Below, in pieces: positions 27,262 through 63,492 of a DNA stretch of 64,000 nucleotides (the first letter of the stretch is position 1; every line of letters begins with the position of its first letter). The stretch comes from Spirogloea muscicola (lineage: Eukaryota): positions 994,019 through 1,058,018 of the forward strand of contig WELB01000011.1 in NCBI GenBank assembly GCA_009602725.1, read 5' to 3'. Position numbers and translations under genes: made by a program. The notes under the pieces are model-generated. The model was not told the DNA's origin. It saw nothing but the letters and a program-made list of their open reading frames with translations, and ran no database searches.

Positions 27262-27812
27262 GACAAATGTACGTCACCTGCTGCTAAGCTGACCCGCTCA
27301 GTAACCACGAGTCAGCACTTAGAGGTCGCTAGCTGACGCTCGAATACCGGACGGCAATTGACTAGCTCTTGTGCCAGCAGCTAAGGCTCGACCAGCTTTC
27401 TGATGCAGAGCATACGCCTGAGCTCGTTGTAGACAGGTTGACACTCGACGTCGCAGAAATGACAGATAGGCTGCCGGCATACCCATCTGGGCTGGGAGCA
27501 TATCCTCGCGTCGTGCATATCCCAGACTCGCTATGTTCTCGAGTAGGGTATGGAAGCGAGGACCCGAGCAGCCGAAAATGTCGATTGCGGCCGGGAGAAG
27601 GTGGTCGCTGCGGGGGTAGTCAGAGTAGTGTCGGAGCTTTCTCTGCTCAGCACCTCCCACTCCGTGGCCAGCAATGTGTGTAAGCGGAACTTTTATATGC
27701 CTCGGTCACCACCACATCCGCCAAGGCTCGTGGGCCTCCGCCAGGTTGTACACCCATAATGTCCAGGGTGCGACGGTGATGGCGACCCTGGGAATCCGTG
27801 GTGATGGGCATT
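27262..27812 (-). mobile_element. 5'-truncated CRE-like non-LTR retrotransposon, family C (RLE endonuclease C-terminus and 3' UTR)
   Basis: MPITTDSQGRHHRRTLDIMGVQPGGGPRALADVVVTE...EQRKLRHY...LRRRVSTCLQRAQAYALHQK...SDL*VLTRGY* is similar to the copies at 60298-60930 and 62900-63403. Confidence 0.85.
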
Positions 27813-27949
27813 AAGGCGCGAGAGAAGGCGCGCGCGGTGCGTTATCAAATAAGGGGGTGGCCAACGGTTCAAGCCAATGCATGGTTCGGGCAAAAGCGAG
27901 TGGACAACTTGGGAAGGTGGGCTCATGAATATTTAGAGGGAGCCACAGA

Positions 27950-28378
27950 TGAGCGAGAGCTGATGTTCACGGGGGCTTTCGGCAGCCGTTGGCTGGATCT
28001 CCTCCAGCGGCTTGCCCGTCAGGCCACCGGCGGGCCGGGTCAGCCGGGGGCGATGCCCGGCTTCAATGCCGCCGGGTCGCTAGCCCGAGTTGTCCGAATG
28101 CGCCTGGCGGTATCGTTTCAACGCTCCCTTGCCTACGCCGTCCACACGCGAGCTATGGCCGCCTCCTCTGGGTCTCGGCGGAGTGCCTCTTTCCCTGCAG
28201 CGAGCTACTGAGACCTGATTTTGCTCACTCGCGGGTACTGAGCTTCCCTCTGCATTGTCTACGTGTTTTGTAGTGTAGTCCTTTTCCGGCTCTTCTTTCC
28301 TTTGGCTTTGGACATTGTCCATTCTTTTTTGGGCTGGCTTTGCCAGCCCCTCTTCTCTATGGGCGAGCACTTTCTTCT
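27950..28378 (+). mobile_element. 5'-truncated CRE-like retrotransposon, family A
   Basis: GAFGSRWLDLLQRLA...RMRLAVSFQRSLAYAVH...DLILLTRGY*, then a 3' UTR with the GGGCTGGC-TTT-GCCAGCCC hairpin (28331-28349) and a GGGCGAGCACTTTCT end. Confidence 0.8.
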
Positions 28379-37718: not shown

Positions 37719-40192
37719 TCATGCTATTTGAACAGGGCCTGGTCTTGTCAAGAATACAGGAGTGCTGAGAGGCTCCTGTACACTCGGCACATGGTATTGT
37801 GGGGCGACTTGGGGTGGAACATTTAGCCTGAAGAATTGGGCATAATCGAGATAATGCGCCACTGCCTTGGTGCTGACGCCCTTGCCTAACACTCGCTGGC
37901 CATGCCCAGCACCCTGCATGCCGCATAGTGGTCCAAGATATTAAAATGTCTTTCATCATCCTGTACACGAGACCGCAGAACAGCTGCAAGTTGCAGAAGT
38001 ACACACATCAGAGTGATACAGTATGGAACGTGGTAGCTTGCCTGGTCTAACACTCATGGTGACCATTCTTGTGCGCCATGCTCACCTGCATTGAGCCAGG
38101 CCCAAAGCAATTGCCATCTTCCCAAAAAGTTGGCCGCGTGGGGTCCGTGTTGGTGTTCCACGGCGACCAGCCAGCAGCAGGCACACAGCTATCAATGAAG
38201 CAGCTCGCCAGTATGACACGAGCGTCCTGGCCCCAAGGCCTGCCCAAGAACACCTGCCGGCCTAGGCCGGCCGAATGTGTGCATGTAAACTTGCACTTAT
38301 CAAAAACAAAGCCGCCTTCATCCGTTGGGTCAGCTTCCACATCCCGTCGGTGCGCTGCAAAGCGCGCAAGCTGATTCTGTCAGGCTGATGCCCAAGCCTC
38401 TGTCAGCATGATTTTCTTAACCGAAAACCACATGCAGATACTGTGAGGATCAGAATTCAACTGGATCACAGCTACCTGTGTAGAAGCCTGGTGAGTTGTT
38501 GGCTGTGATGCAGCAGGATACAAAGACAGCATATGCCTGCGGCCCTCCAAATATGAAGTCCACACTGCCTACAATCTCGCATCGTTCATAGTACTGCAAG
38601 GGCAGGAACAGGACACACCAGATGAGGATGGTACTCCTCAAGGTCAAGGAGGTTCTCAATTATTTAAATAGATGCAATTTTGTTGTCTCTTGTATAGTAT
38701 CAAAGAGTGTAATCAATCAACCCCTGAGAATCTCTGAACAGCAAACTGGAGCATTTGCAAGATCAACTGAGCACAAAGTTCAATGTCTTTGTGCCACAGC
38801 AAAGTTGTGGCCAAGACTTTAGTACCACACAAAGCACAAAGCAGCTTGGTCAACATGGTGAGCGCTCACCTGCCTGCCCTGCTTTGCATAGAGTGTGTCC
38901 TGGTATCCCATAAACCTGCAGCCATAGAAGGCTGCTGAGTTGCTCTGCACCCTCACTGCCACAGCCTGCACGCAGGAGGTCGCTAACAAAAAGGCTTAAA
39001 CCCAGCAAGCTATTGGGGGCCAACAGCAGGTCACGAGGCTGCTAGTCTGACCTTGCAGCAGACTGGCAGCAGAGGGCGCTTTGCGGCAGACCTGATTTAG
39101 GCCAGATGCGCCGCCGCAGCGGGGCCCCGCGGAGTTTTCGATTGAGATGTTGACGGCCTCAAACTTCTGCGCATCAATCTGCGCCACGTGAAGCACGCCC
39201 CCATGAACTCGCGCAGCGGTCAGCCAGCTTGGCTCAGCGCGTCCCGCTCATCACCTCAAGGTTGTTCCAGCTTAGGAGCGGGCTGACAAAGGGGCTCAGC
39301 GAGCAGCTCACCAGGAGCGTGCCACAAGTGTACGTGCTGTAGGGCTTCCCGTCCGGCCCGCCGGGCTTGCCATTGAAGGCGTCAAAGGTGATGAGCGTGT
39401 TCTCCGCGCTCTCCCCCTGAAGCAGGACGCGGCCGCCGCTCCCTGGACAGGACAGTCAGGAGGGCGACCGCCAGAGCCCACGAGCCGCCGTCTGGCTGGC
39501 CGAGCGACGGCGGCGGCGGAGCCTTGGCCCCAGTGTAGCAAAGGCAACGTGGGCGCCGCTCGACATGAAGCGGAGGCGCGCCCAAAGGCAAGGCTTTTGG
39601 AGCCGTCGAGCCTACGGCGCTCCGTCGCGCTCACCACGATCACGACGTCCGCCTTGTGAGAGGGTATGAGGACCTGGGCGCCATTGGGCAGCCGCGCCAC
39701 CGAGGGCCGCCGGGCGTCAGCGCAGGGCGCACCCGAAACCCTACCACAAACTTGTAAACCCTAATTTTTAGACACTGAGTCCTGAACTCGAGACCCTGTG
39801 CCGGGCTGTCACCTGCCCGCGGTACACGCTGGGGAGGACGCGGATGACGGCCCGGCCGTGCGGCGGCGCCGCGTCCACAGCGGCCTGGACGGTCCCGAAG
39901 TGCCCGCCGCCGCCCACGACCAGCGTTGCCGCGCCGGGGCCCCACGCATGACTCGACCCAAAAATCGCCGGGACCGGCACCGCCGCCGGCTTTGGCCTCC
40001 GCCGCGACGCGGCTGGCGCGGTGGCGAGGCGGTCAACGTCAAGGAAGCCGCCGCCACCGCCGCCGCCTGCCTCGACCGCCGCCGCCGTCGGCCGTGCAGC
40101 CGGCGGCCAANGCCGTCCGCCGGGCGGCCCGGCGGGGGCTCCTCCGTCCCGCTGCCGGGGAAGCGGGCGCAGCAGGCGAAGAGGCTGGCCAT
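37719..40192 (-). CDS. Pectin methylesterase (CE8) without PRO/PMEI domain or obvious signal peptide
   Basis: GHFGTVQAAVDA, IENSAG, QAVAVRV, FYGCRFMGYQDTLY, YYERCEIVGSVDFIFG, GFVFDKC, FLGRPW, GWSPW. A single 'n' at 40111 leaves the N-terminal frame ambiguous. Confidence 0.9.
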
Positions 40193-41902: not shown

Positions 41903-43746
41903 CTAGATCCCGTCCCCAGCACTCTGCTCCCTAAATTTCTGGCTGGTCTCTGCGTACTTGCCGCCCATGAGGTCGAGAACCCTCAGCCAGAGGTCCGCAA
42001 CAGAGGCCTCCAGAAGCAGGTCGGTGCTGCAGGCTGCGACGTGCCACCAGCCCAATGCAACCTCCTTCCTCAGCTGGACAACATCCCACCCGGAGTAGCC
42101 AAAAAAGAACCTGTCACAGCACAGCACAAGCAGAGCTTCAGCTTCTTTTCTCCATAAGCATAACATGATGTTGCAGATGTCGACCTACTGAATTAAAGCA
42201 TATGAGGGGGACCTGCCCGACTCGTAGCTGAAGAGATTCAATAATGCCAGGACGTATTGGCCATTATGCCAGGTACCTGAAAGAAGCAGACTTCGCAAGG
42301 CCATTGTTGATGAGTGACGTGGCGGCACCTAGGCCTGCTCCTCCACCGTGGTAGATTCCGGGCAGCAGTTGCTCATATCCTTGTATGCCCTCCTCTCCAT
42401 GGAGCACTAAGAACCTGACAGGAATGTCAGCAAGCTGATGTACACTCAGCACTTAGCATGTGATGGGAGTCAATCTGCAGCCGAAGTTAAGCTCTTTAAC
42501 TATACTTTACTTAATTTTATGAGCATAGAGGAATCGCAGGACCTGTCCGACTGGAGTGGCCCTCCCACATTAACGTGGCAGGAGCCGAAGGTTCGGACGA
42601 TCATGGGATCCATGCCGTCGATGTCGCGGATGTGGAAGGGCAGCTGCTTGTTCAGGATGACTCCGTAGGGCGTGTCGTCGACATCACCGTGGAGCATCAG
42701 CACCACAGTCTGCTCGAAGAAGGGGTACCCGTGGAGTTTTTCTGAAGCCACGAGGATGCAGCCTGGCTCGGGCTGCAGGATGGGGTGCGCCCAGGGCCCC
42801 TCAGAAGAAGGTTGGTGCCTGAAGATTCGGAGCTTAGGCGTCAGCGAGCAGCTCTTCCATGAGGAGTAACGCAAGGCCAAAGTGCAGCTATGCAAGGACG
42901 AGGTGCAGCAGGCTACAGGTTAAGAGGAGTCTGCTTCCTCGAGTTGCCGGGACCAGCAGCCATCTTCAGATTTGCCAGTAGCCTCGAAATCAGAACCTCT
43001 ATGAGGCGAGCTCATGTCGCCCATGTCTGCATAGGGAGCAGTGACAGCAGTAAGCAGACCTCCGGTCGGCACTACCGGAGCTGGATGCAGTTGGCGTCCT
43101 CTCGCCTCCCCCCTGCTCGCGTGCCACCAGCCGTGCCCGGAAAGCTCGCCAGTCTGCCTGCGGCAGCTCGTCACCCTCGGCCGCGCCCGCCGCCTCCCCC
43201 TGCCGGCTGTCTACGTCGCCCCCCTCGGGTGGTGGCGTCTGACCCCAGCCGCCGTCGGAGGCAGCCCTGCAGGCCCTGCGCCCTTGGCCGATGCCTGCAG
43301 GCAGTTGTGGTGTACCAATTGTGAGGCCACCGCTATGGTCTGAAGTATGAGACCGCGACCGCAGACCGGTACTTGGCAACCCCATCAAGCAGGCCAGCAA
43401 TGGCCGGTCTGCCGTGAGTTCTGCGGACGCAGCAAGACGTGGGGTGCGGCGCTCTCAGCCCCGGGCTCCAAGATTGACGAGCTCCAAGAAGAGGGTTCAC
43501 TGCCGGCGAGCAGCCATGCAGCGGGAATTGTAAGAGCCGCGGCACAGGTACCAGAACTCTCGCGCCGCCGAGAGCCCCGAGTCGCGCCGGAGGAGCAGAG
43601 GTCCCTTCGCTGGAGCTGGCCACGGCCGACGCGGCCGATGGGCACTACGGCAGAGGGGGCGCGCCGGGCACCTGCGGCCGGCGCCGGCGGCAGCGCGCCG
43701 GCTNTGCCGGCCGGCGCGGCGCTCACCCGGGCGAGGCGGCCATCAT
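41903..43746 (-). CDS. DUF179 / UPF0301 (YqgE/AlgH-like) protein; start uncertain
   Basis: ADWRAFRARLVARE, WAHPILQPEPGCILVASEKL, FEQTVVLML, PYGVILNK, VGGPL, FLVLHG, FFFGYSGWDVVQLRKEVALGWWHVAACS, LWLRVLDLMGGKYA. Confidence 0.88.
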
Positions 43747-43921
43747 GGCGGCGGCTGCGGCGCCCGCCGGAGGCGGCGGAGCTTGCTGGCGGCGGTCGGC
43801 GGTTGGAGGAACAGATGACGAGATGTTGGGGAGATGGCATAAGTCTTGCCGCTAGCCGCTTTCCGCCACGCGCTCCGGCTGCGTCGGCGGCTGCGGCGGC
43901 GGCGGCGGCTGCGGTGGCGGC

Positions 43922-45392
43922 ATGGACGCCTTGCTTGCCAGCTACGGCGCGGACGACGACGACGACGATGTTGGGGCGGAGGAGCCGCGGCAGAGCACGG
44001 CGGCGGCGGGAGGCGCCACTGCCGCCACGGCGGCCCCTGCGGCTGGCAACGTCGCGCCTTTGGCGACGCCGCGCCCCCGGCCGTCGCTGTTTGCCTCCCT
44101 GCCGCCGCCGGCCTCCGCGGCCATGGCGGCGGCGAGGTCGTCCGCCCCGCTGGCCGGGCGGCACGGCGCCGAGGCTCTGGAGCAGCCTCAGGCCCGAACG
44201 GCCGTCTCCGGCCCCGCCAGGCCCTCCCTCTTTGGCGTCCTGCCGCCGCCACGGCAGGCTGCGCCGCAGGTCTCGCAGAAGCGCAAGGTGGTACCCTTCC
44301 GGCCGCCTGGCAGCGCGGCTGAACCTCTGGCTGGTAACGACGAGGACGATGGCTGGCGGCCCGGGAAGCACCCTCGAGAGCAGCCTCCAGCACCGGCAGC
44401 GGAAGCGCCTGCCGTCGAGAGAAGCTCGGCGAAGACGGGCCTCGCCGCGCTCCTCCCGGCGCCGAAGCACAGCCTGGGCGTCGGCAGTGCTCTCGGCGGC
44501 GGGGCGGTGCCCGGCAGCCGGCGCACAGTCATGGAGAGCAGCTCGGCTGCCCACCCAGAGGTGCTGCTGGAGGGAAGGCCGCTGCCGCCAGGTCAGGCTG
44601 CCGTGCTCGCGACGGCCCAAGGCCCGGCAGACTTGGCACATACGAGGGTGCTGCCAGGGCACATGTCACCTGCGCAACATTGTGATGGGTCTTCAAGCTA
44701 CCAGGCTGGCGCACCTCGCGAAACCGTGCAGCCGCCTCGAGAAGGCCAGTATGCGGAAGCAGGAGAACAACCTTCCGGCCCAGCACAGAATGAACCCCAA
44801 GCTCACTACCCGCCAGAGGTGTACGCGCAATACCATGGTGGAGCCGTGGGTCAAGCGCAGGACTTTGATCTGGGGCCTTCACCTTCGGATCCTCTTCAGC
44901 AGGCGATGGCGCAGGAGAAGAGGAAAGGCAAGGACGGGCCTGCCCACATAGTGGAGGTCAAGCAGGCGGAGTTGACCAAGGTCACTCCCCGGCAAGAGCT
45001 CCAAGCTCCTGCTTATGGCCCAACATATCAGGTGAACAACTAACCGTTGATGACTTGATCTGATGAAGTTGGACTGTGAATGATGCAAAGCTGATGTGCA
45101 AGTGAAGGCTTATCATCTTTGCAAGGCATGCATGCTTGCATTCCCTTGTACTGCAGCATTGAGTCAATGTCTGTAGCTTAGCACCCTGCCGATGCCGTAT
45201 GACCTCCCACTTTGCATCCTGGTGCAGTCAATTGCCACTTCTGCAAAGGACAAGCCCAGCAAATTGCACCGCAGGAAACATCAGATTACATCACTGTATT
45301 TTGACATGCGTCAGAAGGAAATGGAGGTCGCTGAGCAAAGGGCCAGAGGTCACATGACCAAGGCCCAAACGCATGCCAAATATGGCTGGTGA
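43922..45392 (+). CDS. Proline-rich protein PRCC-like (2 exons)
   Basis: MDALLASYG-acidic N-terminus, SLFASLPPP/SLFGVLPPP/LAALLPAPK repeats, C-terminal KPSKLHRRKHQITSLYFDMRQKEME...TKAQTHAKYGW*. Confidence 0.88.
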
Positions 45393-45502
45393 TTGCAGTA
45401 TTTCTGCTGCACCTTTTTAGTGCATGCATCATCTCAAGCTCAGCCTCCTCTGTCTCCCTTTGCTAGCTTCTGGGGGCACGTGACTGGTCCAGAGATGGGC
45501 TA

Positions 45503-47234
45503 TTAATCAAGACAAGATCTAAATTTTTCTTGCGCTGCATTGAAGACGACCTGAAAAATAGCGAGACAGAAGCTCGTAAAGGCTGTGAACTGAGTTGTGT
45601 AAACATCTTGTGAGAGCAATTTTAAGACAGTGTGTGTAGTAAGAGAGGTCAGCTGCACTAGCTGTCACTAGATGTACTTGGAGATGATTCCATGGACATA
45701 TAAACGACGAAGCAGTTGTGCTGCTAAACAAGTACCTTCAGAGGAACATGATATTTCCTAGCCAATTTTGCACAGTCCTCATACTCGGGATGGGCAGTCA
45801 TCTGCACAGGAGTGATTTCTCTTAGAGACCAGTCATGCTTGCCAAGCACCTGTGCTAGAAGTCATATGGATGGGCCAGTGTCTATCAGGCATTACATAAT
45901 GGATAGGTATTTGGCACCAGCTTGCCACCAAGTGATGCAGCTTTCACGGAAACTGGTCCCCACTCTGTGTTGACAGCTACCATTGACCTTTGCAGGCTCA
46001 CTCGTTCGCACTGATTGATGCGTACACCAAGGCTAGTGGTCTCCTGCTCAAATGCATGCTGCTGAACGTTAGGCTCTGCACAAAAGTCACTGCATCAGCT
46101 AACAGCTGAGGCAAGGCTATTTGGACTTGCCTGCAGGATGATCTGCAGAAGATCATCAACCTGGCCTTTCCTACACAAAACGTTTAGTATCATTCCAGGT
46201 CGTCCTTTCTTCATCAAAGCCTGATTCATGGAAAATCTCAAATTGATCAATGCAACGGAACATGCTAATTAAACTCCTATCGACTTCTCCTCAGCAATGT
46301 GACTCTGTGAGAGTGAGCAGGGCATTTTGCTTGCTGCATTGATTGCTATTGGTCGAGCTGCAGTCACGTCCTCAAGTTGCCGTTGCTTGAAAGTCGGTGT
46401 CATCCACAATTGCATCTCACCTGTACAATCCATGCATCCAAGGCCCCAGCTGCAAGAAGCTGCTCCGTGGTGTATGCCATCTACACCTCCACAGACGAGC
46501 TTTGGTGAGTAGCATCAGAGAGTCATAATTGCTGCACATGATGATGCTCCAGTGCACTGGACGAAGTATGTCACGAAGTATGTCAATTTTAAGTTTGCGC
46601 TCTGCTTGATCAATCTCATCGACAGCAAGTATGACTAACATAATGGCCTACCTACCAGTTGAGGCGACATGTCGTCTACATTTGTCTCCAGGGTCACAAG
46701 GTGCTCCCTCACGACTCCGTCCCCCCGGTGGTCCTCCTGCACGAGCCAATCTGACCCCATGCACAAATGAGACATCAGCATGCGCGCCACGGATGCATGC
46801 AAAGTCGCTTGTGAAGACAAGACGACAAAGCTGTAACCTCTAGGCAAGGTACTAAGCCAGTGCCGCAGAGATGTATCTCACAGTAGACATACCATAGCTT
46901 ATACTCGCCCTTCTGCTTTCGCCGGCAGCCAAGGCTTGATCAAGCTGGGGAGGTGCCCTACCTCGGCTGCATGCTTGGACGCTCTTGCGTTGACCGTGCA
47001 GTCTCCATTTTTAAGGATCCTTGACGTCCGGCAATCCGAAGAGCGATATCCAGAGCCAGAAGCTGACCGCAGTCGCCGCCAGCCAGTTGCAGTCCCTCTC
47101 AAACAGTACCGCCGGCTCAAACGGTACCGCATGGAGCTGGTTTCGGCTGCAGCTCTTAGCGGCCCGACTGGCAGGCGTTTGGCGCAGCCAAGAACGGCGA
47201 GCTCCGCGGGCGATGCGACGGAGGTAGCCGCCAT
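45503..47234 (-). CDS. larC: Stand-alone LarC C-terminal (LarC2/DUF111) nickel-insertase-like domain with a plastid-transit-like leader; 7 exons, 247 aa
   Basis: Exons 47234-46962, 46736-46656, 46480-46421, 46220-46131, 46043-45918, 45801-45736, 45550-45503 (all phase 0, one GC-AG intron). Product: ...LVTLETNVDDMSPQL-MAYTTEQLLAAGALDAWIVQ-ALMKKGRPGMILNVLC...IILQ-ETTSLGVR...ERVSLQRSMVAVNTEWGPVSVK...-HPEYEDCAKLARKYHVPLK-VVF...CLD*. Confidence 0.88.
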
Positions 47235-47332
47235 GATCGGGGCCCAGCCTCTGGAGGCAGCCCTCCGCCTGCTGGCCTGCGGGCTGCGACGAGGTGATGG
47301 AGAGCGGCGTCTCGGCGGGGCTGTCTTGAGTC

Positions 47333-47670
47333 TCTGACCTGAGGCTGCTTAGCAGGAAGAGAAAGTGCTCGCCCATTGAGATTAGGGGCTGGAAAAGCCA
47401 GCCCAAAAAAATCAACAAGGGGGTTACTGAGTGATCCGTAGCTGCTTTGTTTCTTTGTGTGCTTGTTTTTCTTAGCGCTTCCCCTGGCCCCCTTCTCGTC
47501 TTTTGTTGATTCTTATATGGGCTGGCTTTTCCAGCCCCTATTCTCAATGGGCGAGCACTTTCTTTGTCGGGGAGCAGTCTCAGGGACCAGGCCCGCAGAA
47601 GCCACGTAGATTACTTTCGTGCACTTAGCGCCAGTCTTCATACCCCAATCCTCAATGGGCGAGCCCTTCT
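47333..47670. mobile_element. Family-A CRE-like 3' fragments, one inserted antisense within another, in the larC/aldolase divergent promoter
   Basis: TCTGACCTGAGGCTGCTTAGCAGG|insert 47357-~47418|GGTTACTGA, followed by a UTR and hairpin at 47518-47540. Confidence 0.75.
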
Positions 47671-47898
47671 TCTTATACAGTTGTTTGGGGACGAGAACAG
47701 TGACGAGACGAGATGAGAGACGACGAGCGGGGCAACGTCCGGCTTGGTGGCTGCGACGAGAGGAGACGAGACGAGCGGGGGCACGTCCCGCTTGGTGGCT
47801 CTGCCTTACTGTTCGACTGACTGCCCGGCAACGTGCTATTTGGACAACACCGCGGGCCGGCTCGGGTTTCGGCTGGCGGCGCGCCCCTCCCGACCGCC

Positions 47899-50578
47899 AT
47901 GGCTGGCCTCGCCAGTGCGACCAGGCTGCAGGTAAGGCAGCCATCGAGCCACCCCGTCGGCAACAGCGAGAGTCAACTCGGCTCCGCTGCTCGCTATGCA
48001 GCTTGACGATGTGTCAGGCGGAGCTCTCTGCCCTCTGACGGGCCTTCTTAAAAGGCCACGCGCACTGCATTCTGACGAGACCTTGTGTGGCAAAGACCGC
48101 AAGCATGCCATCAAGCCCCACACTCACACTCACGTAAGCTAAGCTGCAGAGCGCAGCTACTGACACTGGGAGGTGGCTTGCCCGGCCGACGCAGGATGTT
48201 GTGTCCAACGCAAGGAGGCTTGCCACCCCCGGCAAAGGCATATTGGCCAGTGACGAAACCACTGGCACGGTTGGCAAGCGGCTCAAGTCTGTAGGGCTGG
48301 AGAACACTGAAGAGAACCGTCGGGCATATCGAGAGGTCAAAGGTCCTCAGCGCCTTAGTAGTTAGCATTCATACTCACTAACTGTGAGTGCAGAGTCAGG
48401 CATTCACCTGCCGCAGCGTGACATCCGTTAATATTTCTGTACTTGCCTATGAGGACTTTCCTTCCTGCTACTGAGGCTCCAGTTTTATTGCTCACTTCAC
48501 ACAGACACTTATGTCCAGGCTAAATAGGGCTCATGCCTACTGCAGGTTCTGTACACTACTCCAGGCATAGGTGCATACCTCAATGGTGTTATTATCTTCA
48601 CAGAGACCTTGCTCCAGTCTACTAAGGCGGGGATCCCCTTTCCAGATGTGCTTCAAGGCCAGGGTATACTTGTCGGCGTCAAGGTGGACTTGGTGAGGCT
48701 CCGGTATGCTCACAAGCTCCCTTGTAATCGTGACGTACTTTGTTCTTTCTGTCCTGACATGCTCTGAGGCAATAGCTGTCTTTTCTCAAGGCGCAGCTCC
48801 ATGCCTTGTCAGGCCTCTGCTGGATAGGAGCTGAACTGTCTCAACGTCGCCAGGGTCTGGTGGCAATTGCAGGTACTGAGGGGGAAACAGTGAGCCAAGG
48901 TCTTGACGGCTTGAGCACGAGGTGCCAGCAATACTACAACAAGGTCCACTATTCCTGAGCTACAGTCCTCTCACATTGGCAAAAGGCGTGCGTCTGAGGA
49001 TAGAGTTCCTTCTGTCCTACAAGGTCATGCTTACATAGTAGCTGCCTCTTCTGACAAAAAGCTAAATCCTGCAAGTGCAGGGTGCAAGATTTGCAAAATG
49101 GAGAGAGGTTATTGCCATCAAAGAGCACTGCCCTTCCAAGCTTGCTCTCAAGCTTGCATCCAGTGCACTTGTCCGCTATGCTTCCATTTGCCAGCAGGAG
49201 GGACTGGTCCCCATTGTGAGTAGCTAATTCTCATGCCTGGAAATGTCCTGCTGCTTGTTGCTGAACGTACACTTGTGGCATTGCCTGCTTGAATGATTCT
49301 AATGTGGAGCCTTGAAACAAACAGGGCACAAGGTTTGCAATGCTGACATTTGCCGTGAAGGTTGTGGTTGGCTTGGATGACACCAATCATGGCCCACACC
49401 TAGGTCGAGGTAAGCCTTCTAGCACTTCTTGTTGCCAGTTGTACTTATGGTGTAGTGGTTTTGAAAGTCTTGACTCATGCAAGATCCTCTTGACCACTTT
49501 GTTGCAGCCGGAGATACTCATCGACGGCACTCATTCAGCTGAAAAGAGCGCGGAGGTTGCAGAACTTGTGCTCGCAGAAGTGTTCTCTGCACTTTCGTGT
49601 CATCATGTCTGCCTTGAAGGCATCCTCTTGAAGGTACTGCAATTAGCTACTGCAGTACACCTTCTAGATTTGCTGGTTGACAAGTCAACAGCAGCAGAAC
49701 TCTCTGGAAGCATTGTGGCACTCTATGACTTGACTCTGACACCACTCCGTACGTGATGAGCAGCCCCAGATGGTGCTACCAGGCTTTGACAGTGACAAGA
49801 AAGCCACACGAGAAGAGTGCGCTCAGCTCACAATAAGGACTTTACAGCGCGGCCTGCCAGTTGCTGTTCCTGGGATCATGTTCTTGTCTGGTGGTCTGTC
49901 TGAGGAGGTCAGTGGAGTGGCTCGTATATCATCTCCCAATTGTGGTACAAGCATCTGCATCCACTCGCGTTTGAGCCTGCATAGTCTCTGTTAAGTCCAT
50001 AGTGGTTGATTTGAAGTGACTCTTTGCCAACTCTGCTTGCCCTTTGCAACAGGAGGCCACGGAGCAGCTGAATGAGCTCAACGTCATCAAGAAATTAATT
50101 AGTGACAAAGTGCCCTGGACTCTATCCTTTTCGTTTGGCAGGGCACTACAGGTTTGTATGCCAACAAGCTGAGACTGGCTTAAGTAGCGCTGGGCTTTTG
50201 AATTGAGACTGGCTTAAGTTGCAGTGGGCTTTTGAATCGAGATAGTTTGCAGAGGTATTTGCTATGCATTACCTGCAAAAGGGCTGCTATTTTATGCTCA
50301 ACTTGATGCATGCACATCCTCTTCTCTTGGCACCCTTCAGAAGTGCTGACAGTGAAATTATTGCAATCCGTCTTGTGTAGGCCAGCATCTTAAGAATCTG
50401 GGCTGGGGATGCGAGCCAGGTGGAAGCAGCCCAAGCCATGGCAGGGGCACTGGCCAGGGTGAATGCAATGGCGACGCTTGGCAATTACGTAGGACCTCAC
50501 CCATCAAAGTTGACGGGAGACCTTCGGGAGAGCTTCCGGGGATGGCGAAGTGTTACAGAAGTGGCAGACAGCAAGTAA
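47899..50578 (+). CDS. FBA: Fructose-bisphosphate aldolase class I, divergent C-terminus, with a 6-nt microexon
   Basis: [81 protein letters not shown]. Start ATG at 47899 is tentative; stop at 50576-50578. Confidence 0.93.
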
Positions 50579-54399: not shown

Positions 54400-55645
54400 C
54401 AGTGGCCGTGAGAGGCCCAGCCAAAAGAGAGGAAATGCTTGCATTCCCCACTACAGAGGCGAAAAAGCTCGCCCTTAGAAGATAGGGGCTAGCAGAAGCC
54501 AGCCAAAAAAGAATGGGAAAAAACAGAGCCCCCCACCACGTCACTGGGCGGCCGTGATTGGTCACTGTTCGGAGGCAGCGGCGTTGATCGACCGTAGCCG
54601 TGGCACGATCGCTGCCGTCGGCGAGGCCGTGCCCCCATACCAACATGCAGTCGGAGCGGCTTTACTGTCTGGTGTTCTGATTCACTTGTGGGGACTAGAG
54701 TCTTCTATTGTATTTTCCGATTTGTTACCTTTGCTCCTGTTTCAACTTTGACGTCCTCTTACATACTGTCCTGGCTTACTTTGGCCTCCTCTGCGGCGTC
54801 GTGTTTCAGCCTCTTGCAGCGAGCTCAGGCTCATGCTTTGCACCAGAAAGCTGGTCGAGCTTTAGCTGGTCATGCCACGCCATTTCCCGCCGCTACCATG
54901 GGGAGCCGGTGGATTTCCATATTGCAGGCTCGCTCGCACAGGTGTATCGAATGCGCCTGCCCGTCTGGCTGCCGAGGTCCATGGCTCGCGCGTTGCATCT
55001 GCGTGCCGGTTGTGCCCTCACTGCAGCCTCTGGCTCTGGCCTGGGGACCCGCTACCAGGAGCCCAGTTTCTCCGACCTGCGGCTGCTTAGCAGGGGTTAC
55101 TGAGTTTCGCGTTCCGTCGACTTGTGGCAAGCTATGTAAATTCTCATGTCGGTATCTTTTTGGCTCTTTTTATTCTGTCCATTCTTTTAGGGCTGGCCTC
55201 TGCCAACCCCTCTTCGCCATGGGCGCGCAATTTCTTGTCAATTTAGCTGTGGCACAAGGGCTTGTCAGTCGCCGTCCAGTATTTGGGCATCGATAAGCGA
55301 CCTCTACGTGCTGACTCGTGGTTATTGAGCGGGTCAGCTTAGCAGCAGGTGATAAATATCTGTCGATGTGCTTTGCCTTTGTACTTGGCCACCCAGGCCC
55401 TCATCAATACACACTCGTTTCTATTAATGGCCTTACACTGAAGGAGATGTTTCTCTTCGGGGATCCCGAGGCCCTAAGAAGAATGCGGCTGCTGATATCA
55501 AAAGAGCGGCTGTAAAAGCCAGCCAGTTGCTTACAGAGGGTGTTCATGACTACGTATAACCCGCTACTAATTCCGCTTCTGCTTCTGGTAGCGGAGCCAC
55601 ACGCTAGGCCGAAGCGAGCTTAGTAACCCCGTGTCGGCAGTAGTA
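54400..55645. mobile_element. Nested cluster of CRE-like retrotransposon fragments (families A, C, D) in the PDI/DUS1 divergent promoter
   Basis: A family-C copy (~54770-55412) is interrupted by a family-A copy (54869-55241) with TSD TTTAGCTG. Reverse family-A end at 54465-54525; reverse family-D copy at 55480-55645 (LLPTRGY*). Confidence 0.8.
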
Positions 55646-60188: not shown

Positions 60189-60939
60189 AAAAAAAAAAAA
60201 AAAAAAATCGTGTATTAGAAAGAAATGTAGGCCAAATGGCCAGGTACAAAGGCAAGCACATTTAAAAATCTACATAACCTACAGCAGATTGACCCGCTCA
60301 ATAACCACGGGTCAAAACATAAAGGTCACTACTCGATGCATGAATTCTAGATGCCAGGAACGGAGCCCTTATGCCACCTACTAGAGCTCGCCCAGCTTTC
60401 TGGTGCAAGGCACTAGCCTGAGCACGCTGCAAACAGGCCGAAACTCGACGTCGCAAGAGCGACAGATATGCAGCTGGCAAGCCCATCTCAGCCGGAAACA
60501 CATCTGCGCGTCGAGTGTAGCCTAGATTGGCAATGTTTTGAAGCAGAGTGTGGAAGCGAGGACCCAGACAGCCAAAGATGTCGATTGCAGCTGGCAGGAG
60601 TTGATCGCATTGGGGGTAATCGGAGTAATGCCGCAGTTTTCTTTGCTCTGCTCCGCCCACTGCGTGCCCAGCAATGTGTGTTGATGCTGGGCCTTTATAT
60701 GCCTCCGTAACAACAACGTCGACCAGGGCCCGTGGTCCTCCACCAGGTTGCACGCCCACAATGTCAAGTGTGCGGCGATGATGACGTCCCTGGGCGTCCG
60801 TGGTGATAGGCATGATATTGTTGACTTCCACGACCGCACGGTAGCCGGCGTCGCCCATCAAGCCCGCCAGGGCATCGCGAAGGAGGTTGTGAATGCCCAC
60901 CACTTCTGGTCCAGTGGGGCATCTCAGCATGTGAGTGGC
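60189..60939 (-). mobile_element. 5'-truncated CRE-like retrotransposon family C with intact C-terminal ORF and a T19 run at its 3' end
   Basis: ORF 60298-60930: HMLRCPTG..IHNLLRDAL...VVE...RRTLDIV...ALVDVVVT...EQRKLRHY...LQRAQA...SDLYVLTRGY*, followed by a UTR and then A19 on the + strand (60189-60207). Confidence 0.88.
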
Positions 60940-61809
60940 AAAAGAAATGAGGAGTAAGGTTTCAAAGGGGCCGGAAAGTGAAATGACGCAGCTATTTAAA
61001 TGGTTACTGCGAGGGTGCTCTATGACCCCTAGTCACCAGCCGCATGTCGGAGCAAGTAGCGGCCGCAAAGAAGCAGCTTCTCGAAGTGGGGGCGATGGTT
61101 GTGAACGGCCAGGTTAAAAAATTGCATAGATATAGAAACTCTTGGAGAATGGGCGGTGGCTGTGGAAGCAGAGAGAAGTGGCGCAACGCGCATGAGTTGA
61201 AAGAGGGGCCAAAACTAGCCAATGGACTTGCAGAAGATACTGTAGAATTTGTGACTGTACGAAACGAAGCCCTCTGCAATGGGGGGCTGAGGTGACTGAA
61301 CGTAAGCCAGCTCAATATCATTGGTGCTTTGGTGTCAAAGTTAAACTGGCAGAGATTTATTGCTCGCTCGAGGGTACTAGGGTCCCCCTTCAGTTGTGCT
61401 TTTTCTATTACACTGCTCGTAAGAAGAACTGAATGTTCTTCCTACTAAGGAGCTAAGGTACGAAAACCCGCCTCCCTCTCATTTCATATGCACCCCGCGC
61501 CTTGTGCTCACTCAGGAAATACAGATCCGACAGGTAGACTTGGAGCTGGAGCACCGACACGGAAGCCAGCGGGCTGGCTTAGTGCGAGATCAGCACGCCA
61601 GTGAATAGCCACAGCTTGGGAGCAGAAAGAAGCAGTTGCGAAAGGGTGCCCATGCCGACACACGGAAGCGGCAGCCAAGGCACGGCCGGCCAGCAAGGTT
61701 CACGACGGCGGCCCAGAGACGAGGGAGAGAAAGCGGCCGCTGACATCAAGGGGCGGCGGCTGTGAAAGCCAGCCGTGTGCATGCAGAAAAAGGGGCTCTC
61801 CGGAAGGGC

Positions 61810-63492
61810 CCCTATCCTCAGTGGGCGAGGCCCTTTCTTTCCCGTCCAAGAGCGTGGCCTGGTCCCCACACGGTCTCCTGCCAACCTTCAGCTCCCCCAC
61901 GGCTGTCAGACCCTGCCAATGGGCTGGCCATCCTCAAGGTCCCCTTCGGTACACCAGCTCACGTGGCGGTGGACTTGCGGGAACGCCTTCAAAAACACCT
62001 CGCCTTTCTCCCTTCCCTTCCCCTCCTTGCGGACACGCAGCTGGCGTTGGCCATCCTCACCCGCTGCATCGGCCAACGGGCTTGCTATCTGCAACGGACA
62101 GTCGCCCCATTGGGCATGGTGGCGGAGCTCTACAAGGAATATGATGACTCCCTTCAGCAGTCCCTGGCATCCCTACTACATTCTTCATCTTTCCCCTCAG
62201 CTTCAGCTTCCCTCCAGGCCTCCCTCCCTACAAGCATAGGCGGCCTTGGCTGCCGGTCGTTGGAGCAGACGGCGCAAGCAGCCTTCCTGGGCTGCTGTCA
62301 CCAGATCGCCTCCCTGCTCCCCATGCGCTTCCCTTGCCTACACGACCCTGTGCGCAATGTGGAGGAAGGCTCCTTCCCCTTCCAAGCGGATCTGAGGAGC
62401 ATCCGCGACTCAGCCATCAGCTCTTCCCCTCTCTCCAAACCCTTCTCACGCCATTCTCCGCCCTCGCCCAAGCTTCTGATAGAGGGGCACAATCCAGACT
62501 GGTTACGGCAGTGGAAGACGAACGCCGCAGAAGGTTGAGGAGGCTGCCAGAGATTCAGAACAATTCAAGGAGCTTGGCAAGACTTACTTCTCTAGCCACA
62601 CCTGGTGCCACTGACTGGATCACCTCTCACCCCGTCGCCAACGCCTTCAGCATCAGCTCCGAGGCTTTTCGGACATCGCTTCAACTCTTCCTCGGCCTCC
62701 CACCTAAGTGCCTGATTGGGGTGCGCCAGTGCGAGTGCGGCTTCCGTGCAGAGGGTGCTGTGCTCGCCACTCACATGCTGAGGTGCCCCACTGGACCAGA
62801 AGTGGTGGGCATTCACAACCTCCTTCGCGATGCCCTGGCGGGCTTGATGCGCGACGCCGTCTACCGAGCGGTCGTGGAAGTCAACAATATCATGCCTATC
62901 ACCACGGACGCCCAGGACGTCATCATCGCCGCACACTTGACATTGTGGGCGTGCAACCTGGTGGAGGACCACGGGCCCTGGTCGACGTTGTTGTTACGGA
63001 GGTATATAAGGGCCCAGCATCGACACACATCGCTGGGCATGCAGTGGGCGGTGCAGAACAATTAAATTGCGGCACTCCTCCAAATACCCCCAATGCGATC
63101 AGCTCCTGCCAGCGGCAATCGACATCAATGGCTGTCTGGGTCCTCGTTTCCACACTGCTTCAAAACATTGCCAATCTAGGCTACACTCGACGTGCAGATG
63201 TGTTCCCGGCTGAGATGGGCTTGCCAGGTGCATATCTGTCGCTCTTGCGACGACGAGTTTCGGCCTGTTTGCAGCGTGCTCAGGCCAGTGCCTTGCACCA
63301 GAAAGCTGGGCGAGCTCTAGTTGGTGGCAGAAGGGCTCCGTTTCTGGCATCTAGTATTCATGCATTGATAAGTGACCTTTATGTTTTGACCCGTAGTTAT
63401 TGAGCGGGTCAATCTGCTGTAGGATATGTAGATCTTTAGATGTGCTTGCCTTTGTACTTTGCCATTTGGCCTACATTTCTTTCTTATACACG
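61810..63492 (+). mobile_element. Longest CRE-like (RT + CCHC + RLE endonuclease) retrotransposon copy, family C; 5'-truncated and frameshifted
   Basis: PSKSVAWSP, GLAILKVPFG, YLQRT, QASLPTSIGGLG (RT thumb region), ARL.S...GA.DW...P, CECG..THMLRC zinc knuckle, R.D / D...T / E..K..Y RLE motifs. Split over three frames (61762, 62334, 62708). Confidence 0.85.

Follow-up and report, generated by a model that had tools for sequence, protein, structure and literature searches.

Does a green alga keep, in its nucleus, one half of a bacterial nickel-cofactor enzyme, and what could such a half do by itself? The question is raised by a gene found within 64,000 nucleotides of the Spirogloea muscicola genome (contig WELB01000011.1, positions 994,019 to 1,058,018); this whole stretch of DNA is referred to here as the window. 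The initial annotation described the gene as a nuclear, intron-containing nickel insertase of the LarC2 type with a plastid-type leader. In the available portion of PMC13510736, LarC is described as an enzyme of two parts: the LarC2 hexamer binds CTP and is proposed to CMPylate the cofactor precursor P2TMN, whereas trimers of LarC1 carry a His cluster and an acidic pocket, the proposed site of nickel insertion (PMC13510736).

Encoded on the minus strand, the gene runs from 47234 to 45503. The seven exons proposed for it (273, 81, 60, 90, 126, 66 and 48 nt) are separated by introns of 87-225 nt and amount to 744 nt, and joining them reproduced a protein of 247 aa with no internal stops and all six junctions in phase 0. 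Upstream, an in-frame stop lies 39 codons before the start and closes the reading frame. The splice sites, previously called proper, are GT-AG in five introns, while intron 4 (46130-46044, 87 nt) is GC-AG, which had gone unmentioned. The parts of the gene to which the text refers are the following:

46962-47234, minus strand: exon 1, 91 aa, an Ala/Arg/Ser-rich, acid-poor leader and likely organelle transit peptide, judged by composition; no Pfam or NCBIfam match
46737-46961, minus strand: intron 1, 225 nt, GT-AG, phase 0, predicted only
46656-46736, minus strand: exon 2, 27 aa, where LarC2 begins, containing the ETNxDD motif; Pfam and NCBIfam matches, downstream joint exact in the X1 contigs
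46421-46480, minus strand: exon 3, 20 aa, AGALD helix-strand; gap-free alignment, two joints seen in X1
46131-46220, minus strand: exon 4, 30 aa, MKKGRP motif; Pfam E 7.5e-7, joints in X1
46044-46130, minus strand: intron 4, 87 nt, GC-AG, phase 0, at the position of the intron of the picoalgal loci L085 and L108; X1 joint and sequence
45918-46043, minus strand: exon 5, 42 aa, ETTxxGxR and TxxGxxxVK motifs; Pfam E 1.8e-9, PDB 6bwo E 0.0054
45736-45801, minus strand: exon 6, 22 aa, PEYEDC motif; Pfam E 0.0019, joint exact in X1
45503-45550, minus strand: exon 7, 15 aa and the stop, terminal helix; HMM alignment reaches residue 242

Evidence for splicing comes from the contigs of one public run (X1), presumed rather than recorded to be RNA. 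These contigs skip five of the six introns: introns 2 and 5 exactly, introns 3 and 4 to within the ambiguity given for their joints, and intron 6. At this last joint eight other letters stand alongside, which we read as a diverged copy. The transcript check that had been proposed for six junctions is thereby answered for introns 2-6, and intron 1 stays unconfirmed, as it is not among the X1 joints listed (four further joints lie outside those listed). For this reason the join between leader and domain rests on sequence, namely a start in favorable context, a GT donor and the sole phase-0 acceptor found in 46851-46736; in the bins 46772-47305, which hold exon 1 and intron 1, X1 contig cover is nil and constitutes evidence neither way. 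The 123 contigs aligned to positions 42500-50500 are spread over identity classes of 99% and above (33), 95-99% (35), 90-95% (44) and under 90% (11), which points to several near-copies of the region in X1, be it through polyploidy, recent duplicates or mixed strains. Since only 33 of the 123 are at least 99% alike, the spliced contigs may derive from a sister copy or strain. Both the unconfirmed intron 1 and the many contigs that differ from the window would suit a faulty 5' model, with exon 1 not spliced to the domain, or a decaying relic devoid of function. We consider this very improbable given the open frame, the intact splice sites and the conserved residues that have been kept, as well as comparable leaders encoded in one exon at L085 and L108 and present in the Chlorokybus model introduced below. 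The earlier view that this is no bacterial contamination is borne out: the gene is real, spliced, and part of the algal nuclear genome.

What does the gene encode? Pfam and NCBIfam scans were run on single exon frames, whereas the spliced protein was scored on a purpose-built LarC HMM (82 bacterial LarC sequences, 458 positions). PF01969 matches four of the seven exon frames collinearly over profile positions 226-373 of 375, with E values of 0.0017, 7.5e-7, 1.8e-9 and 0.0019, two of the four being above the cut-off; no PF01969 match was obtained with exon frames 1, 3 and 7. The NCBIfam LarC2 family NF052512 matches three of the seven frames, none of which passes the cut-off singly. On the LarC HMM the spliced protein reaches 175.6 bits, compared with 2.7 for the best shuffle (336 scored of 500), and the match spans residues ~100-243 and HMM positions 302-445 of 458, that is, the entire LarC2 and no part of LarC1. 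The profile check suggested for the gene has in this way turned out in its favor, and the six LarC/DUF111 motifs named beforehand were all found in the order claimed. Among 133 non-algal LarC2 domains 21 columns are at least 85% conserved, and the window protein is identical in 20 of them, including all 11 charged ones; the remaining column has Q in place of P at 138. Exons 2-6 (two of them slightly trimmed) align gap-free to two bacterial LarC2 proteins, and identity to a Lacticaseibacillus plasmid LarC2 is 41% over 132 aa. LarC2 oligomers are solved structures. As a stand-in for the window protein, the model of the Chlorokybus orthologue shows a pLDDT of 96-99 in the domain and low confidence in its ~50-aa leader, and superposes on the LarC2 crystal structures 6BWO/6BWQ with a TM of 0.92-0.94 by target and an rmsd of 1.3-1.6 A; the Atlas model of the Cymbomonas protein gives a TM of 0.83 to LarC clusters. 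The predicted gene product belongs to the LarC2 domain family without being a complete LarC (TIGR00299).

The other half of the enzyme was sought in the same DNA. A LarC1 HMM, which gives 207-312 bits with four full-length LarC controls, found no match in the 247-aa protein or in the six frames of the window, and HMMs for LarB and LarE (14 and 8 sequences) likewise found none within the 64 kb. A weak match between intron 2 and the LarC1 end (E 3.4) was not repeated with better HMMs and was discarded as chance. The leader directly precedes the domain, with neither a LarC1-LarC2 linker nor a frameshift join between them. There is also no room for an upstream set of LarC1 exons, because a head-to-head aldolase gene begins on the other strand, with 664 bp between the two starts. 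As the nickel site of LarC1 and the linker are both missing, the protein cannot insert nickel alone. The name nickel insertase is not supported for a gene missing LarC1, the half in which PMC13510736, in its available portion, proposes nickel insertion. LarC1, LarB and LarE were also not found by HMMs at seven picoalgal loci within the DNA available per locus. Such a lack of partners, in the window and at these loci, is expected in eukaryotes, but the partner genes remain hypothetical.

The neighborhood is that of ordinary eukaryotic genes. Pfam matches were obtained for 17 of the 27 window ORFs, and the neighbors include Cys-tRNA synthetase, a mitochondrial carrier, two mTERFs, Snf7, ZW10, a pectinesterase, a thioredoxin and Dus. 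The aldolase (47899-50100, plus strand) is a class I fructose-bisphosphate aldolase, several introns of which are skipped in X1 contigs; a functional link to the LarC2 gene is not apparent. Between the two genes, at 47306-47674, lies a repeat whose inverted arms of 51 nt occupy 47360-47410 and 47513-47563 (94%) and which includes one further, partial copy; summed X1 contig depth is ~1000 there against 0-100 elsewhere; the repeat is probably a small non-autonomous mobile element in the shared promoter region. On the other side, a tail-to-tail neighbor (43922-45392, plus strand) has an X1-seen intron near 45032-45227, and its last exon ends ~110 bp from the LarC2 stop. Its first exon has no Pfam match, and the gene ends in a motif which we take to be that of PRCC-like proteins. 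The pectinesterase-family exon (38047-38379, minus strand; Pfam E 2.9e-12) also matches pectinesterases in five PDB entries (E 1e-7 to 2e-3); on general grounds a gene of this family would point to a streptophyte. A broken ORF is repeated in related copies at 27319-28211, 54598-55296 and 60298-63403, with no Pfam match in the three pieces scanned; the copies are likely to be a decayed retroelement family.

Is the stand-alone LarC2 peculiar to S. muscicola? A profile search of proteins of up to 251 aa returned two green-algal names among the best 120 of 1099 matches, Chlorokybus atmophyticus Chrsp12S01984 (209 aa) and Cymbomonas tetramitiformis CYMTET_53784 (181 aa). Both were again among the 18 matches of an unindexed search with exon 5, the top five of which are LarC2-only proteins or fragments; a word-indexed search with exon 5 alone (seven candidates) and the Atlas yielded none. 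These two named nearest relatives, likely orthologues of the window gene by sequence, agree with the green-lineage affinity assigned to it at the outset. The search of proteins of 259-2000 aa gave bacterial-type LarC in its best 120 of 7782 matches, a sample that cannot show full-length algal LarC to be absent, and none of 34 pattern matches in viral contigs was confirmed. When 421 LarC2 domains were compared, the 18 closest to the window (itself excluded) were the algal-type stand-alone set, at 49-57% identity, and all eight relatives scanned with NF052512 passed its cut-off. DNA was obtained for one protein cluster at 80 loci, seven of which, the marine picoalgal loci, were analyzed as eukaryotic. 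L085 and L108 are eukaryotic contigs, with MCM, RRP40, TGT and TrmO as neighbors, and encode a basic, acid-poor leader of 86-99 aa followed by LarC2. Each contains one phase-0 intron directly before the ETT/ETS motif, which is the position of window intron 4, and because two relatives share this position the LarC2 split is likely old in green algae. We infer from their similarity that L085, L108 and the proteins P0242, P0243 and P0246 come from green algae. Residues C180 and S184 of the window protein are found in 8/8 algal-type rows as opposed to 2-3% of the others, and the shared intron position and private residues together suggest one old origin in green algae. By these predictions, a stand-alone, leader-bearing LarC2 recurs in distant green algae.

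The descent of this form was followed in two trees, both of which hold no identified oxygenic cyanobacterial LarC: a quick one from the 421 domains thinned to 143 at 70% identity, and a careful one from 44 hand-picked domains. The eight algal-type rows group with L089, L090, L092 and L126 (SH-aLRT 95 in the quick tree; 91/96, not starred, in the careful one), a closeness that is partly selection, because these four were retrieved with a peptide pattern derived from an algal sequence. The algal-type rows do not form one resolved clade, which appears in 6% of 200 bootstrap trees and is neither shown nor rejected by the AU test (p 0.35). A LarC family match is present in the Synechococcus elongatus control genome, while plasmid searches returned no cyanobacterial LarC among 60 of 107 and 60 of 96 records listed. 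At L090 (2597-5026), an AT-rich eukaryotic contig encodes an 809-aa full-length LarC that carries an insert rich in His and ends in a long extension resembling TPR repeats.

To which compartment would the leader direct the protein? Of the 91 aa of exon 1, 15 are Ala, 14 Arg and 12 Ser, with 5 Asp/Glu; the leader is basic, and the Ala/Ser/Arg-rich, acid-poor character noted earlier is confirmed. In the first 60 aa the fractions are 0.18 for Ser and Thr, 0.18 for Arg and Lys and 0.03 for Asp and Glu, figures to be read beside general criteria for transit peptides (rich in Ser/Thr and Arg, poor in acids, uncharged at the start, unstructured). The first 16 residues hold no Arg or Lys, the first of which stands at 19, and the hydrophobic moment is low (0.24). 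An uncharged start and a low hydrophobic moment suit a plastid better than a mitochondrial presequence, and the window leader likely sends the protein to the plastid, as far as composition can tell. The leaders of relatives range from 25 to 99 aa, and those of Chlorokybus, Cymbomonas, P0242 and P0243 have four Arg/Lys in their first 16 residues; with such variation in length and early charge, plastid targeting is not uniform.

That several of these leaders are Arg-rich from the start would fit a role of the split enzyme in the mitochondrion, or in both organelles, with the gene sharing its inheritance with other lar genes of eukaryotes rather than coming from the plastid ancestor. This would also be in line with the grouping of the algal rows with two eukaryotic-looking full-length LarC (L090 and L092) and two bacterial ones, with the CDC5- and L36-like ORFs that, by reading, flank L090, and with the lar genes reported from unicellular eukaryotes, including the plastid-less Phytophthora, in the accessible text of PMC11770544. 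We nevertheless hold it to be improbable, as the window leader is long (about 100 aa) and uncharged at its start, and as it was the algal peptide pattern that brought the four non-green rows into a tree with no identified cyanobacterial LarC to compete with them.

On balance we give even chances to the following reading: the protein is the organellar LarC2 subunit of a split LarC, its leader likely takes it to the plastid, and there it likely pairs with a separate LarC1 to finish the nickel-pincer cofactor. Import and subsequent loss of the leader would leave a LarC2 domain of ~150 aa, which would form a hexamer as in bacteria and bind CTP and Mn at the subunit interfaces. From precursor supplied by LarB and LarE, LarC2 would transfer CMP to P2TMN, and a LarC1 encoded by another gene would then insert nickel. 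Speaking against easy work in trans, every linker change in Moorella thermoacetica LarC reduced activity to below 10% (PMC13510736, available portion). The same source describes the LarC of L. plantarum as two ORFs of an operon that are joined by a programmed frameshift (PMC13510736). Among Chloroflexota, 14 of 31 genomes match, and two, picked for short or odd LarC2 frames, were examined further (G019 and G006; L175-L178). In both, LarC1 and LarC2 lie inside different contigs, LarC1 stops with no linker, and LarE is above the cut-off. Being close relatives, the two count as one case; their seemingly natural split of LarC would be a precedent for working in trans.

The main alternative, conceivable though rather unlikely, is that green algae kept LarC2 alone and lost the remainder of the pathway, and that the hexamer serves as a nickel-free CTP-binding regulator or as a cytidylyltransferase for some other organellar substrate. 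All algal-type homologues seen are LarC2-only and carry the private residues C180 and S184 in all eight rows, the Moorella enzyme needs its covalent linker according to the available portion of PMC13510736, and the fold search with the Chlorokybus model returned, after three LarC matches, the PII-like nucleotide sensors GlnK, SbtB and CPII (E 3e-4 to 3e-3). The PII-like match, however, is restricted to the ferredoxin-like subdomain alone, at 10-19% identity; the conserved LarC2 residues are intact and a remodeled site is not apparent; and bacteria with unlinked LarC1, LarC2 and LarE exist. Moreover, a separate LarC1 could not have surfaced in the search for relatives, because the queries were pieces of LarC2. 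Returning to the split LarC, we speculate, with somewhat less than even confidence, that early green algae, chlorophyte as well as streptophyte, make the cofactor in the plastid with a linker-free two-gene LarC from their common ancestor, and use it for the same non-LarA enzyme that cyanobacteria may have.

The literature provides a setting for this idea. As far as the accessible text of PMC11796402 goes, LarB, LarE and LarC of Synechocystis make the cofactor, LarA is missing in most cyanobacteria, and the cyanobacterial nickel-pincer cofactor has no known user (PMC11796402). Non-LarA users are being found in bacteria by gene neighborhood, with no mention of algae or eukaryotes in the accessible part of that report (PMC13524815), and unicellular eukaryotes carry lar genes, of which LarAH15 of Phytophthora has been characterized (PMC11770544, accessible text). 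The parts available of PMC9283937, PMC7583248 and two bioRxiv preprints hold nothing on algal lar. PMC8170915, in the part accessible, lists a moss protein, PpGlyIII6 (Pp3s30_990V3.1), with DUF111 and DJ-1. It was set aside as a green-lineage orthologue, since its LarC2 and following PfpI parts read like adjacent bacterial genes merged in the model; the fusion may reflect contamination in the moss gene set. The LarC family, eukaryotic lar genes and database entries of algal proteins are already on record. No account of a green-algal or plastid LarC was found in the literature consulted, and subscription reviews or bioRxiv supplements may list algal lar genes; by our predictions, the stand-alone, leader-bearing, intron-sharing form of green-algal LarC2 appears to be new, present so far as unannotated database entries.

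Such a form would matter in several ways. It offers a second, independent set of genomes besides cyanobacteria, so that genes co-occurring with LarC2 in cyanobacteria and in these algae would be candidates for the cofactor user. It also provides nature's own trial of LarC acting as two separate proteins, as against the need for a linker described for the Moorella enzyme in the available portion of PMC13510736. If LarC1 and the partner enzymes are present as well, this would hint at an undescribed nickel-cofactor pathway in the green plastid; if the other lar genes are lacking, a LarC2 that green algae have retained as an orphan must serve some new function.

Several known systems stand close to the S. 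muscicola gene. In L. plantarum the same domain (PDB 6BWO/6BWQ; NF052512) is joined to LarC1 by a frameshift within an operon, whereas here a nuclear gene of seven exons, having a start and a leader of its own, encodes LarC2, and LarC1 is missing upstream. With the full-length LarC of Moorella thermoacetica (PDB 12BI-12BL) and Synechocystis PCC 6803 it has in common the C-terminal CTP-binding, hexamer-forming half, but it lacks three elements that are needed according to PMC13510736, as far as that text is available: the linker, the acidic pocket and the His-rich nickel site. The stand-alone LarC2 of the Chloroflexota G019 and G006 and of Methanopyrus (MK0293, PDB 3C19) is a separate protein like that of the window, LarC1 being unlinked in the two Chloroflexota, which have both LarC1 and LarE; unlike the window gene, these prokaryotic genes have neither introns nor a long basic leader. 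Phytophthora LarAH15/GntE (PMC11770544, accessible text) and the protist LarC of L090 are nuclear lar-family genes as well, although L090 unites LarC1 and LarC2 in one protein and the green-algal form is LarC2 only. Closest are the entries of Chlorokybus (Chrsp12S01984, EukProt) and Cymbomonas (CYMTET_53784, a 'DUF111 family protein' in UniRef), both annotated automatically: their leaders (55 and 33 aa) are shorter than the 91-aa exon 1 of the window gene, and at 55% and 52% identity they are, like the window protein, LarC2-only with an N-terminal extension.
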